From Candidatus Bathyarchaeia archaeon (GTDB lineage: Bacteria > Patescibacteriota > Microgenomatia > PFEM01 > JAFGMK01), in assembly GCA_035529595.1 (NCBI GenBank), contig DATKWK010000035.1, positions 49,067 to 113,066 on the forward strand: a DNA stretch of 64,000 nucleotides, in the 5' to 3' direction. This document shows positions 9,143-13,217 of the stretch, piece after piece; the stretch's first letter is position 1; each line of letters opens with the position of its first letter. A program made the translations under genes and the position numbers. A model generated the notes under the pieces. The model worked only from the letters and a program-made list of their open reading frames with translations. It ran no database searches and had not been told where the DNA came from.

Positions 9143-9160
9143 GTGACCCCACAGGGAAAT
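9143..9160 (-). repeat. Degenerate copy of the tRNA-Glu 3' end. It is a candidate far att site (attR-like) for the tRNA-Glu island.
   Basis: GTGACCCCACAGGGAAAT matches plus-strand 12261.. GTGACCCCACGGGGAATC at 16 of 18 positions in the same orientation. I estimate a chance match in 64 kb at about 0.003. Confidence 0.4.
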
Positions 9161-9320
9161 ACCTCAAACACCATCTCAGTCTATCTTTTAACCACCTATC
9201 AGAAATTCAATGGGTATTATCTCCCCCAGTCGATCCAATTTCCTTTATCAATTTAGGTAAATTTGCTAAAATCATTTCATGGGCAAGATAGTGAGTCTGA
9301 AAGATTTAAAATAAAAGAGA

Positions 9321-9842
9321 TTGCCAAAGCCTGTCGTCTTTACTGGTGGTACCTTTGATCTTTTTCATAATGGTCATGCAGAATTCTTGCGGCTATGTAA
9401 AAGTTTTGGTCAAACTTTGGTGGTTTTAGTTTCTAATGATCGGCGGGTAAAGGACAGAAAGGGTTCTTCTAGACCTGTTATTGGAGAAAAAGATAGGTTG
9501 AAATTAGTTAGTTACCTGAAATTTGTTGATTATGCTTTTTTAGGTGGCAGTCTTAGATGTGAAGATAAAAAATTGTGTGCGGCTGTTAAGGCGGACATTT
9601 TAGTTTTGTCTGACGAAAATAAGCAAGAGAAGATGGCTTATTTAAAAAAAAGCTTTAGCAAGGAAGGCCTGGCGAAAGAGATTAAGGTGAAGTTTGTGCC
9701 AGCCAAGTTTTATTCGGCAAGTCTGTCAACTACTAGGTTGATTGAATCAATTAAAAATGGGACGGTTTGGAGGTCGGATATTAAAGAAAAATTTATTAAA
9801 AGAGGTTCATCATCCCACATTGGTAATGAAAAAAGAGCCTAA
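9321..9842 (+). CDS. Cytidylyltransferase-like (HIGH-motif) nucleotidyltransferase.
   Basis: FTGGTFDLFHNGH is the (T/H)xGH nucleotidyltransferase signature near the N-terminus. The ORF has a TTG start. Confidence 0.65.
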   Translation: MPKPVVFTGGTFDLFHNGHAEFLRLCKSFGQTLVVLVSNDRRVKDRKGSSRPVIGEKDRLKLVSYLKFVDYAFLGGSLRCEDKKLCAAVKADILVLSDENKQEKMAYLKKSFSKEGLAKEIKVKFVPAKFYSASLSTTRLIESIKNGTVWRSDIKEKFIKRGSSSHIGNEKRA

Positions 9843-9990
9843 ATAAACTAGACTCTCTTATCATTGTCAGATACCAGTTCTGACTACGAACTACCAACAG
9901 CTTATATTATACCAAGAGAATACTACGATACCTACCACCTAGTTTTTTCGCATTATGATATGGATGTTAAACTTGGTAGAATAGGACTTA

Positions 9991-10236
9991 ATGCAAACCA
10001 AAGACGAAAACATCAATCAGATTCCAACCCTCAAGCAAGCCTTGGACAAACTTATGACTTCTGGTACAGTCGTGGGGCAAATATCGGCTCCGATCTCATT
10101 CGAGGACGATTCGATCATCTTCGATAATTCACCACTATCAGCCGTAAAGTCCCTCAAAGTCAATCTGTACTCAACTGAAACAGAGGAAATGGGAATTCTC
10201 CACAAACTTCATACTATGACCAGGAGTGTAGAATAA
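9991..10236 (+). CDS. Small hypothetical ORF. It overlaps out of frame with ORF 9864..10127 and may be a decayed gene.
   Basis: 81 aa with no motif. An antisense ORF of equal size is also present. Confidence 0.15.
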   Translation: MQTKDENINQIPTLKQALDKLMTSGTVVGQISAPISFEDDSIIFDNSPLSAVKSLKVNLYSTETEEMGILHKLHTMTRSVE

Positions 10237-10238
10237 GT

Positions 10239-10805
10239 TTATCGTTTACTTTGTCTTGCAGCTTCAATGGCGAATCTGGAGCGATAATCTCCAGGATACG
10301 GACTCCAGCCAAACCCCATTTCGATAATCCCACTGAAATACTGCTGTGTATCAGGCGATAGTGTCGTGAAGTTGTCTATTAACAACCCCAAACCAGGATC
10401 ACTTTTATTGCTCGCAAGCATAAGCTGAAAAGCAAATGGCGGGTATGCAATCTCCTCGACCCATCTCCATATTTTTAACTTGGTATCAATTCGCAGTTGT
10501 GGGCCTTGGATTCTGGCTCTTGGTCCGAAATACAAAAACATTCCTAGTTCCATGCCCGAAGGAATCGCTTCCGTGGATTTTTCCAAAATAATTCGTTTTA
10601 TAGCGGGATACCTACCAGCCAAATCCCATGAACCACTCAAACTGCACATGCACGATAATACCTGTCGCACAAAGGCTCCAGGCTTGACCGCTCCATCTTT
10701 CTTGCTACCGAATGTGACATTCTCCCCAAAAGGCCCGACTGTGTTGTTTAATTGGGGAATAACTCCAGAACCGAAACCATTGATAAACTTATTTGCCTTT
10801 GCCAC
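10239..10805 (-). CDS. Hypothetical protein, the fourth and last gene of the TIR-like cassette.
   Basis: 188 aa with a GTG start 35 nt after the HNH gene stop, on the same strand. No motif recognised. The reading frame is open upstream into the HNH gene's 3' end (...TGKLYGEEYKNW-VAKANKF). Confidence 0.45.
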   Translation of the reverse strand: MAKANKFINGFGSGVIPQLNNTVGPFGENVTFGSKKDGAVKPGAFVRQVLSCMCSLSGSWDLAGRYPAIKRIILEKSTEAIPSGMELGMFLYFGPRARIQGPQLRIDTKLKIWRWVEEIAYPPFAFQLMLASNKSDPGLGLLIDNFTTLSPDTQQYFSGIIEMGFGWSPYPGDYRSRFAIEAARQSKR

Positions 10806-10840
10806 CCAGTTTTTGTATTCTTCCCCATAAAGTTTTCCAG

Positions 10841-11212
10841 TCAGTGAGTTGCAATCCCTACAGAGGGTATAACCAAAAATGCCCCCTGTTCAATTAAATG
10901 TTTTGCGTTTGGATTTTCTTCAAGCCGATCTCTCAACCAGTCGTCAAATGAAAGATGAGTGAGTCGCTCTTTATTTCCACTCGCTCTTGGTGGAATATGC
11001 TCTTTTGTCAGATTGGTAACTTTCCCACACAAACGGCATTGTCCTTGTAAGGGTCGTCTGGGAAGCATGGCAACTGTATCTTCAGAAGAAATATCGCCAT
11101 TGACTGCGATCTTTACATAACTGGAAGGAGCTGCTTGTAAAGCTTCATCAAAAAGTCGTTTTACTTCAGGGTCAGTTGGATCAATGTCTTTGGCCACTAT
11201 TTTCCAGCTCAT
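10841..11212 (-). CDS. HNH-like endonuclease domain protein.
   Basis: The zinc-finger/His-Me pattern CRLCGKVTNLTKEHIPPRASGN matches C-x2-C...(D/E)H-x2-P...G.N. Confidence 0.5.
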   Translation of the reverse strand: MSWKIVAKDIDPTDPEVKRLFDEALQAAPSSYVKIAVNGDISSEDTVAMLPRRPLQGQCRLCGKVTNLTKEHIPPRASGNKERLTHLSFDDWLRDRLEENPNAKHLIEQGAFLVIPSVGIATH

Positions 11213-11233
11213 ATTAAAATTAAGTCTATCTCG

Positions 11234-11773
11234 TTAATGAGTTGGCAAACTACTTACTCCGCATAGCAAGGCCAGTCCGAGAATCACATATACAATGCCA
11301 AACGCCCAAGGGACAAAAAGCTCGACATGAGAGAATGGAAAATATTTGTTATTGTCTTTTCCTTTGCCCAAGATGTCCCACTCATGTTTGTATATTGCCA
11401 AAGGGAGCTGTTTTTCAATGTCATGCAGGACATTGAACTTGCCAGTATTGAGTTGTTTATAAGATCTGATCAAAAACCAAAATATAACACAGATTATGAT
11501 GCCTACAAAGGCCACCATGGCTTTAATCCAAGCGTAACCCTCAAGGATTCTATACTGAATCGAAAGACCAATCAGTGAGATTAAGGCGGTGTTAATGGTG
11601 ATGAAGTAGTTGTTTGCGTTCTGTCGGCGGTCACTGATTTTCTCAATGCTCTCAATATAAAGTTTATACTGCTCCAGGTAGTGATCCTTATACTTTGATC
11701 CGTACTGCTTCTCCGTTTTGACAAATAGGTCGCTCATAGTTTGTAAATCCGAAAGCCATAGGCAGAAAGTCAA
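11234..11773 (-). CDS. Small multi-TM membrane protein. It is a candidate membrane effector with SLATT-like topology; this is not confirmed.
   Basis: N-terminal ~45-aa soluble region (MSDLFVKTEKQYGSKYKDHYLEQYKLYIESIEKISDRRQ), then two adjacent TM helices (FITINTALISLIGLSIQY and WIKAMVAFVGIIICVIFWFLI) and a third C-terminal TM helix. The likely start is ATG 11737; the track's TTG at 11773 abuts the upstream stop. Confidence 0.5.
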   Translation of the reverse strand: MTFCLWLSDLQTMSDLFVKTEKQYGSKYKDHYLEQYKLYIESIEKISDRRQNANNYFITINTALISLIGLSIQYRILEGYAWIKAMVAFVGIIICVIFWFLIRSYKQLNTGKFNVLHDIEKQLPLAIYKHEWDILGKGKDNNKYFPFSHVELFVPWAFGIVYVILGLALLCGVSSLPTH

Positions 11774-12154
11774 TCAAAGGGAATTGATAAAATTGGCGAT
11801 GCCATCCCAGCTCCACTCAATAACTTTATAGCCATCCAATTCGGCAGGGACTGATCCTTTATCATCTTTGTGTATATGCACTCCCAACATCGGCACACCT
11901 TCTTCGTCTGCACACTGCATTTCCCACTTGGCCCCATCAGCGTTCCAGGTTTTCTTGCTGATCAAAGCAATTACAGCATCACAACTCTTAATCCGTTCCC
12001 TGCATTTGGTTTTCCATGAACTGTCCCAAGGTTCTTTAACGGACATATCAGTAAATTCAAAAGGACTCCGTTTATCTTTGCCCTGTTGAACCAAAAAATC
12101 TCTGGCGTATTCGTCCTCAATGGCGAAGCTGATAAAAACTCGTTTGTTGCTCAT
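11774..12154 (-). CDS. TIR-like domain protein of the DUF1863 / MTH538-type, ThsB-like.
   Basis: KRVFISFAIEDEYARDFLVQQ matches the canonical VFISF..(E/D).. TIR start. CDAVIALISKKTW...KWEMQCADEEGVPMLGVHIH parallels the DUF1863 core (V.VLIG......SKWV.WEI..A.E....I..V). Confidence 0.55.
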   Translation of the reverse strand: MSNKRVFISFAIEDEYARDFLVQQGKDKRSPFEFTDMSVKEPWDSSWKTKCRERIKSCDAVIALISKKTWNADGAKWEMQCADEEGVPMLGVHIHKDDKGSVPAELDGYKVIEWSWDGIANFINSL

Positions 12155-12169
12155 AGTATATAGCTGCTT

Positions 12170-12198
12170 TCGGGTTTAATTATACTCTTATACAAGCC
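12170..12198 (-). promoter_or_regulatory. Sigma70-like promoter for the cassette.
   Basis: On the minus strand TTGATC, a 17-nt spacer, then TATAAT lie about 15 nt upstream of the TIR-like gene's ATG. Confidence 0.4.
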
Positions 12199-12260
12199 AG
12201 GGATCAACGAAAAGGGGACGGTTCTCAAACAGCCTCATAATTCGTAAAAGTCGGGACTTG

Positions 12261-12333
12261 TGACCCCACGGGGAATCGAACCCCGATTTTCAGGATGAAA
12301 ACCTGATGTCCTAAGCCATTAGACGATGGGGCC
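12261..12333 (-). tRNA. tRNA-Glu (anticodon UUC).
   Basis: 73-nt cloverleaf GGCCCCA/TGGGGTC acceptor with a G-U pair. T-arm CGGGG-TTCGATT-CCCCG, anticodon loop TTTTCAT, D-arm TCGTCTAATGGCTTAGGACA typical of tRNA-Glu. CCA is not encoded. Confidence 0.9.
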
Positions 12334-12482
12334 TAATGTCTGAAAAAATCAAAAAAAGTTTTGCTTATTTTAGCAGAAAGGCCTTGATACAAGCAAGACA
12401 AAGATAATCTTTTCATTCAATCATACATAATTTTGGGTCCAGTATTTTCCGTTAATCGAGAATCTGTTAAAATCAAACCGTA

Positions 12483-13217
12483 GTGACAACAAAGACTTAC
12501 GATATCCAAATCAAAACAAAGATTAGAATACCCGTTAAGATAGCTCTCGCCAGCGATTTCCACTTGAAACAAAATTCAAGCTCTCTAATTAGAGATTTAG
12601 TACGGACCTTGAATAAAGAACCAGCGGATCTGATCTTTCTTGTCGGTGATTTTGTTCAAAACCATCGGAAACTGCACTTTCTTGACCCTCTTTCCGAGAT
12701 AAGGAATAAAAATATTTTTGCCGTCTTGGGAAACCATGACTTTAACATCAATCTACCTTGGCAAAAGCCAGATTACTTGATAGCGAAGCTAATAGAAAAC
12801 TACTTAAAAAATATGGGTATTAAAGTTTTACGCAACCAGAAGACAAGCGTAAAGATAAGTAACCAATCAATTTCTATAACCGGTATAGACGATCTCTGGA
12901 CCAGGCAACCCTTCCCTGCAGATTTTAGACAGACAGACATCCTTTTATCACATAACCCGGACATCATTCTTTATCCACCAGTGACATCATCACTGATTCT
13001 CTCAGGCCATACTCACGGCGGATCAGTCAGCTTTTACCCGATCAGGCGGCTTTTCTCTTTCTTAAATTGTCGCGTGGGCAGAAGAATTAGCAATGGTCTT
13101 TTTAGCTATGAAAAGCGCCAGGTTTTTATCACGCCCGGAATCGGCAAACTGATGGGCTTGATAAGAAAAGGGGTCAAACCAGAAATTAGCTATCTAACGC
13201 TAAATTGTAGGTATTAA
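12483..13217 (+). CDS. Calcineurin-like metallophosphoesterase.
   Basis: Motifs DFH (ASDFHL), GDFV, GNHD and GHTHGG. Confidence 0.75.
   Translation: MTTKTYDIQIKTKIRIPVKIALASDFHLKQNSSSLIRDLVRTLNKEPADLIFLVGDFVQNHRKLHFLDPLSEIRNKNIFAVLGNHDFNINLPWQKPDYLIAKLIENYLKNMGIKVLRNQKTSVKISNQSISITGIDDLWTRQPFPADFRQTDILLSHNPDIILYPPVTSSLILSGHTHGGSVSFYPIRRLFSFLNCRVGRRISNGLFSYEKRQVFITPGIGKLMGLIRKGVKPEISYLTLNCRY

Follow-up and report, generated by a model that had tools for sequence, protein, structure and literature searches.

A conserved gene pair of a ThsB-type TIR protein and an 8xMP membrane protein as a candidate Thoeris-like module, next to a frameshifted HNH-like gene

Introduction

The stretch of DNA considered here (hereafter, the window) comprises 64,000 nucleotides (nt) of the contig DATKWK010000035.1, and the element in question is a group of minus-strand genes at positions 10239-12154. 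A preliminary description of this stretch, made from the sequence, had read four co-directional open reading frames (ORFs) there and proposed that they form a four-gene defence or abortive-infection cassette, with a TIR-like protein, a small membrane protein, an HNH-like nuclease, and a fourth protein without recognisable motif. The four ORFs are indeed present, with gaps of 36, 21, and 35 nt between consecutive ones. Nevertheless, ORF3 and ORF4 are one frameshifted gene, and the region thus holds three genes, not four. The first two encode a TIR protein and a small protein with several transmembrane (TM) helices, and constitute a conserved operon-like pair, found in mobile and defence-island contexts in other genomes.

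The TIR protein and its membrane partner

The first gene (ORF1, 11774-12154, minus strand) encodes a thsB-like TIR protein of 126 amino acids (aa), predicted to be an NAD+-consuming sensor and signal producer. The TIR-like assignment had been made from short signatures and is borne out by profile searches, with a match to the Pfam family ThsB_TIR (PF08937) at 9.3e-11 and 42.5 bits (cut-off 21.2), and matches to several ThsB models of PADLOC, the best of them at 4e-9. The protein is 45% identical to the TIR protein of the type IV Thoeris system of Pseudomonas sp. 1-7 (PsTIR), and 59% identical to IMG 2595605415, which shares with PsTIR the TIR cluster 2635319349 in Table S1 of Yirmiya et al. 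(bioRxiv 10.64898/2025.12.03.692087). The catalytic glutamate, which the preliminary description had recommended looking for, is E78. It is aligned with the glutamate of the KWEI motif of PsTIR, placed at E79 by counting; the type IV Thoeris study included tests of an E79Q mutant, and it is invariant in 32 of the 32 aligned proteins (30 TIRs linked to a membrane protein of the window's type, the window TIR, and PsTIR).

The second gene (ORF2) had been listed at 11234-11773, but its true start is the ATG at 11737. The gene thus spans 11234-11737 on the minus strand, and its product of 167 aa is identical to the database protein P0001, by which the start codon was set. It had been described as a SLATT-like protein of about 170 aa with three TM helices; the size and the helices stand, while the family is a different one. 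The protein covers the whole profile of PF24838, the 'Octameric membrane protein family (8xMP)' of Pfam, at 2.3e-41 and 141.3 bits (cut-off 30). When the SLATT families (PF18181-PF18186) were searched, the sole match among 20 8xMP members was one protein with SLATT_4 (E=0.086), a value at noise level, and the window protein gave none. Similarly, none of the 20 members matched DUF2270 (PF10028, ThsF) at E<=10 in a Pfam scan. ORF2 is also without a PADLOC match, and a search of the window's three proteins against NCBIfam yielded no match. Solved-structure relatives of 8xMP were found neither by sequence nor by profile search.

The three hydrophobic TM helices of ORF2 lie at about residues 43-63, 69-90, and 139-160, with a predicted topology in which the N terminus is inside and the C terminus outside the cell. 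Each predicted cytoplasmic segment is basic (8 Lys and Arg residues), and these segments carry motifs found across the family, namely QYK...E.....S.RR...N..F..INTALI and YK..N..K....H..E...P...Y..EW. The window protein has almost no extracytoplasmic sequence. Homologues with about 70% identity occur in many Patescibacteria and in other phyla, and, in a set of 1.84 billion representative proteins, PF24838 forms 3231 clusters when grouped at 50% identity.

Ten longer members of the family contained neither a TIR nor any other informative Pfam domain. A different architecture occurs in two loci on contigs labelled Methylococcaceae and Methylumidiphilus (L033, 593-3274, and L034, 5947-7695), where 8xMP is C-terminally fused to a periplasmic substrate-binding domain of the NMT1/THI5 type, and the fusion is followed by a protein of 412 aa with a TIR domain of the CAP12/Pycsar-effector type. 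The periplasmic location of the domain attached to the C terminus fits the predicted topology, and the arrangement raises the possibility that certain 8xMP proteins respond to something extracellular.

Conservation of the TIR-8xMP pair

The gene neighbourhood was compared across 42 loci, fetched via three 8xMP homologues and, for 35 of them, by a scan that took one genome from each species. In 35 of the 42, the gene directly 5' of 8xMP is homologous to the window TIR gene, has the same orientation, and either overlaps the 8xMP gene or lies within about 30 nt of it, so the first two genes of the proposed cassette do co-localise in other genomes. The hosts are mostly Patescibacteria, with further contigs labelled Gammaproteobacteria, Bacteroidota, Bdellovibrionota, and Persephonella. 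Other TIR clades are paired with 8xMP in three more loci, one with another ThsB clade (L036), and two with the CAP12-type TIR described above (L033 and L034). In another locus (L032, 5161-6783), one 8xMP gene, whose product is extended C-terminally by about 100 aa, follows two TIR genes, one window-like and one of the same ThsB clade as in L036 ('YNIFISHSW'). The pair can also be recognised on RefSeq plasmids of Synechococcus elongatus and Haematospirillum jordaniae, in which a 'TIR domain-containing protein' is followed by an 8xMP protein annotated as 'hypothetical protein'.

The two partners differ in how strongly they are conserved, since the TIR proteins are 27-88% identical to that of the window and their 8xMP partners 58-82%. 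A divergent TIR beside a conserved 8xMP corresponds to the pattern of variable sensor and conserved effector found in Thoeris.

Elsewhere, the pair adjoins serine recombinases, an integrase, a HaeII restriction-modification system with Vsr, Mrr/nSTAND genes, and toxin-antitoxin genes, and it often lies just 3' of a tRNA gene, as in L017 and L020. N6_N4 methylases are further neighbours, some of them fused to LexA-like domains. In Patescibacteria, for example, a LexA-like helix-turn-helix and an S24 peptidase are fused to an N6/N4 DNA methyltransferase beside the pair in L037 (2613-5303), L048 (1472-2815), L010, L015, and L016, and in L048 the gene of a BsaWI-type restriction enzyme lies beside this fusion.

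Such surroundings bear on whether the pair serves immunity at all. It could instead serve mobile elements as an addiction module resembling toxin-antitoxin systems, or fulfil a housekeeping function related to the membrane or to NAD in Patescibacteria, whose genomes are small. The very high frequency of the pair in this group would fit such a role, as would a plasmid copy that adjoins toxin-antitoxin and partition genes, and the existence of some 8xMP genes without a TIR gene. The distribution is, however, patchy and reaches many phyla at about 70% identity; the neighbours include restriction-modification genes, methylases, Mrr/nSTAND, and recombinases; and the TIR protein is of the ThsB type. 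In addition, the TIR clusters entered with a '3TM' partner in Table S1 are enriched beside known defence genes, and were kept for that reason (bioRxiv 10.64898/2025.12.03.692087). A non-immune role is, on balance, quite unlikely.

As a separate observation, on the plasmid pLBX of Leptolyngbya boryana (L053, 1604-3480), an 8xMP homologue with about 40% identity follows the gene of a hypothetical protein of 449 aa, and there is no small TIR gene at that place.

A frameshifted HNH-like gene

The remaining two ORFs, at 10841-11212 (ORF3, 123 aa) and 10239-10805 (ORF4, 188 aa), are the halves of one HNH_5-like gene at 10239-11212 on the minus strand, whose product has about 324 aa when repaired. 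The break lies at a homopolymer of five G residues at 10882-10886 of the minus strand (C5 on the plus strand), in which one G is missing with respect to the intact ...EQGGIFGYTLC.... It had already been noted that the frame of ORF4 stays open into ORF3, and suspected that ORF4 could be a frameshift-fused C-terminal part; both points are confirmed. All-frame translation shows the frame of ORF4 open in the 5' direction through ...GGIFGYTLCRDCNSLTGKLYGEEYKNW..., which is the second CxxC-N half of the HNH motif, and with a sixth G in the run a single protein of 324 aa is restored, which has more than 100 homologues of 310-330 aa encoded by one ORF each. The nearest homologue (P0121, 323 aa, 79% identical) reads ...EQGGIFGYTLC... 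through the break point.

ORF3 and ORF4 together carry the ββα-Me motif, with two CxxC pairs, the catalytic His, and an Asn, and 56 homologues of the repaired protein all keep residues C59, C62, H72, C118, C121, and N122. The HNH-like reading of ORF3 thus holds for the CxxC...EH...N half-motif, its weak part being the profile score: HNH_5 (PF14279) reaches 19.8 bits with ORF3 alone and 24.5 bits with the repaired protein, both below the cut-off of 27.5. Some homologues have a precomputed PF14279 match. A structural model of the HNH-like protein is confident (pLDDT 90.7), including about 200 C-terminal residues beyond the N-terminal zinc-ribbon HNH core, and a comparison of the whole model with the PDB gave no neighbour beyond weak matches to the HNH core.

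The broken gene could still be functional if the G run causes programmed +1/-1 frameshifting, or if the missing base is a sequencing error. The position of the break in a homopolymer would fit such an explanation, and both halves are otherwise free of stops and 79% identical to the intact homologue. Nevertheless, every full-length homologue among the matches listed (about 100 of 120) is a single ORF of about 300-390 aa. Three homologues whose DNA was checked lack a G run at this site, an observation that speaks against programmed frameshifting. The split ORFs are recorded alike in the NCBI, JGI, ENA, and Logan collections; the break is thus reproducible, although the four records may share the same reads. 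A functional HNH-like gene in the window is, taken together, improbable.

The proposal that all the ORFs act jointly as one four-gene defence cassette has the layout in its favour, with co-directional and tightly packed genes, one promoter-like site, and a common location in the same small genomic islet. It fails, firstly, because its third and fourth genes are a single frameshifted gene. Moreover, none of the 42 8xMP loci gave a phmmer match to the repaired HNH-like protein (E<1e-3), and, reciprocally, TIR and 8xMP genes are both absent from the four loci fetched for three intact HNH-like homologues (L043-L046). These four have other neighbours, namely a type III restriction-modification pair, DUF4238, SNase, a serine recombinase, and a lambda Ea47-like gene, and in L045/L046 one of the HNH-like genes overlaps a DUF5677 gene by 4 nt. 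Two further candidates, a 325-aa gene 5' of the TIR gene in L006 and a 361-aa gene after the 8xMP gene in L047, were found not to be HNH-like homologues, the latter being unrelated. Conserved synteny, on which the preliminary description had itself made the cassette depend, is thus absent for the third and fourth genes, and the cassette is refuted on this ground; that the genes nonetheless act together is hardly credible.

Since the HNH-like gene does not co-occur with the TIR-8xMP pair in these loci, it lies outside that module. The most suitable reading is that of a variable gene of defence islands in its own right, inactivated in the window. The HNH-like family of about 320 aa to which it belongs, whose genes are found in changing, defence-island-like surroundings, may be an undescribed nuclease system, either stand-alone or of two genes.

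Promoter and genomic islet

A candidate sigma-70-like promoter, TTGATC-N17-TATAAT, is located at 12179-12207 on the minus strand, 24 nt 5' of the start of the TIR gene. The motif had been reported earlier with the same sequence but at 12170-12198, about 9 nt off. It is the top site in 9800-12600, with 10 of 12 consensus positions. In the same interval, seven promoter-like sites were found against 6.0 +/- 2.5 expected from shuffled sequence, and as the count equals the expectation, the site is plausible as a promoter but carries no statistical weight.

Immediately upstream, at 12260-12333 on the minus strand, lies a tRNA-Glu (UUC) gene, detected by ARAGORN and by the Rfam tRNA model (62.7 bits), whose 3' end abuts the islet carrying the module; the preliminary description had likewise placed the genes in a tRNA-anchored island. 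A direct repeat of 16 nt (15/16) of the tRNA 3' end (12260-12275) occurs at 9143-9158 on the minus strand. It is the sole other match within the 64 kb, where 0.02 would be expected by chance. Together with the tRNA end, this repeat delimits an islet of about 3.1 kb (9159-12259), which has likely been inserted at the 3' end of the tRNA-Glu gene, with 9143-9158 as a likely att remnant. The G+C content of the islet is slightly higher (0.43-0.46) than the value of about 0.36-0.38 found otherwise. Besides the TIR-8xMP pair and the broken HNH-like gene, it contains a cytidylyltransferase-like gene (9321-9842) and 396 nt in which no ORF is convincing (9843-10238), with no recombinase or integrase within its 3.1 kb. 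The genes flanking the islet region are housekeeping-like (NUDIX, HAD, cytidylyltransferase, metallophosphoesterase, VWA, and GcvT).

The nearest relatives of the TIR-8xMP pair belong to Patescibacteria, for example Roizmanbacteria UBA1450, at 77-82% identity. Proteins identical to those of the window (HUW21933-HUW21936) are recorded in an NCBI metagenome-assembled genome labelled 'Candidatus Bathyarchaeia archaeon', a label that may be wrong.

Proposed mechanism

The best reading of the pair is a logic of TIR sensor and membrane effector. From family membership and analogy with known systems, TIR and 8xMP probably form a Thoeris-like abortive-infection module, in which a ThsB sensor and signal producer would gate an oligomeric 8xMP effector. 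The promoter match and the gap of 36 nt suggest that both genes would be co-transcribed from the site at 12207-12179. Like the characterised ThsB proteins of Thoeris, the TIR protein would sense phage infection and, through E78, would convert NAD+ into an ADP-ribose-derived signal, most likely an isomer of cyclic ADP-ribose (cADPR). As this TIR is type-IV-like and the effector unrelated to any tested one, the signal could be N7-cADPR or a new isomer. It may bind the basic cytoplasmic face of 8xMP, formed by the N-terminal helix with S-x-RR and by the loop between TM2 and TM3, in which YK..N..K....H..E...P...Y..EW is found. 8xMP, as a ring-forming oligomer (octameric according to its Pfam name), would then open or disrupt the membrane and thereby abort the infection.

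The main rival to this sensor-effector scheme reverses its polarity. 8xMP would act as a membrane sensor or anchor that responds to envelope perturbation or phage DNA entry, and the TIR protein would be an NAD+-depleting effector that it activates or releases. Stand-alone or effector TIRs that deplete NAD+ are common, for example in CBASS, Pycsar, and prokaryotic Argonaute (pAgo) contexts; the predicted C terminus of 8xMP points outward; and the fusions of L033 and L034 place 8xMP, with its periplasmic NMT1-type domain, beside a CAP12/Pycsar-effector-type TIR. The window TIR belongs, however, to the ThsB signalling clade, and its nearest characterised relatives are signal producers. A fast-evolving TIR beside a conserved 8xMP is, furthermore, the Thoeris sensor/effector pattern and not its reverse, and the near lack of extracytoplasmic sequence leaves the window 8xMP little with which to sense. 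Reversed polarity is accordingly considered unlikely for the window pair.

Several observations weigh against a TIR sensor gating an 8xMP effector. The L033/L034 architecture just mentioned means that 8xMP could be a sensor or an anchor, not an effector. Four distant 8xMP genes at 35-43% identity (L038-L041) lack a TIR gene beside them. The AlphaFold2 monomer of 8xMP, built from an alignment of 20 sequences, is poor, with a pLDDT of 57.7, which was too low for a fold search with the model, and the term 'octameric' is taken from the Pfam family name alone. Likewise, the promoter of the pair is called from its consensus match alone. Finally, the TIR-8xMP configuration is only putative in the catalogue of Yirmiya et al. 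(bioRxiv 10.64898/2025.12.03.692087), all '3TM' rows of which use the TIR clusters 2734565194/2556961318, and none the window-like cluster 2635319349.

A wider proposal would make TIR-8xMP a real and widespread Thoeris type, so far uncharacterised, and the main TIR-signalling module of the Patescibacteria/CPR (candidate phyla radiation), in which a variable ThsB gates a ring-shaped 8xMP pore via an ADP-ribose-derived signal; separately, the HNH-like family may represent a stand-alone defence nuclease. Taken jointly, these statements stand at about an even balance between true and false.

Significance

If the pair defends against phages, it would provide a new effector family for Thoeris, and would extend immunity by TIR signalling to the ultra-small Patescibacteria, the source of many of the fetched examples. 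A membrane effector joined to a type-IV-like TIR would also allow a direct test of whether unrelated effectors read the signal of one TIR clade. As regards annotation, the call of four genes is corrected to a two-gene module and a pseudogene, and the '3TM' label used in the preprint of Yirmiya et al. can now be tied to the Pfam family PF24838.

Comparison with known systems

The HNH-like gene shares with the HNH_5 (PF14279) nucleases the arrangement CxxC...EH...N...CxxCN with its invariant Cys, His, and Asn residues. Unlike them, the window copy is frameshifted and scores below the profile cut-off, and its C-terminal part is without a fold match.

For the TIR-8xMP pair, the relevant frame is Thoeris, for which Yirmiya et al. 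catalogued 29 putative types, types V-XI being verified, and observed that related TIR clusters swap effectors (bioRxiv 10.64898/2025.12.03.692087). Neither ORF2-4 nor the flanking genes gave a SIR2, SLOG, or Macro match, and a canonical ThsA of Thoeris I or II was thus not encountered. The type IV system consists of a TIR protein plus a caspase-like protease, with N7-cADPR identified as the signal. The window TIR resembles the TIR of that system, PsTIR, in overall identity and in the aligned catalytic Glu, but in the window a membrane protein takes the place of the caspase-like protease as predicted effector, and the region has no caspase gene. In the rows examined for the shared cluster 2635319349, the effectors are caspases (type IV).

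In architecture and expected logic, the window pair matches type V Thoeris (ThsB and ThsF), in which a TIR protein is combined with the three-TM DUF2270 protein ThsF (in its model, seven protomers form a ring with basic pockets between them), and in which 3'cADPR triggers toxicity (bioRxiv 10.64898/2025.12.03.692087). 8xMP, by contrast, has no sequence relation to ThsF, and is 'octameric' by its Pfam name where ThsF is modelled as a heptamer. Types II (Macro-TM ThsA/ThsC) and VII share with the proposal a TIR signal that leads to a membrane-disrupting effector; the window membrane protein differs from these effectors in that it has no Macro domain and is not SLATT. The effector of type VII is a SLATT protein, and that of type X an ion channel (bioRxiv 10.64898/2025.12.03.692087).

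The closest entry is a putative one. The catalogue contains a putative type 'TIR + 3TM' with about 100 TIRs (Table S1/Fig. 1C of bioRxiv 10.64898/2025.12.03.692087), which shows the same two-gene operon as the window, a ThsB-type TIR gene and then the gene of a small three-TM protein. The '3TM' entry Ga0172380_10000146131 (= P0397) lies directly 5' of a PF24838 gene on contig Ga0172380_10000146, and P0471, a related 'molecular chaperone Tir' protein, likewise adjoins a PF24838 gene. As one of the '3TM' partners in Table S1 is a PF24838 gene, TIR + 8xMP has already been catalogued as a candidate. The earlier qualification of the system as undescribed is, therefore, half true: a published test of a TIR-8xMP system was not found, and the literature on 8xMP/PF24838 gave nothing relevant, but 'TIR + 3TM' does figure in Table S1 as putative. 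The TIRs of the '3TM' rows belong to a 'YNLFISHSW' clade and are 22-25% identical to the window TIR. The second TIR of L032, which shares its 8xMP gene with a window-like TIR, is 87% identical to Ga0172380_10000146131. Judged by these sequence relationships, the window pair is a version of a catalogued candidate, TIR-8xMP, that differs from the catalogued one by its type-IV-like TIR clade.

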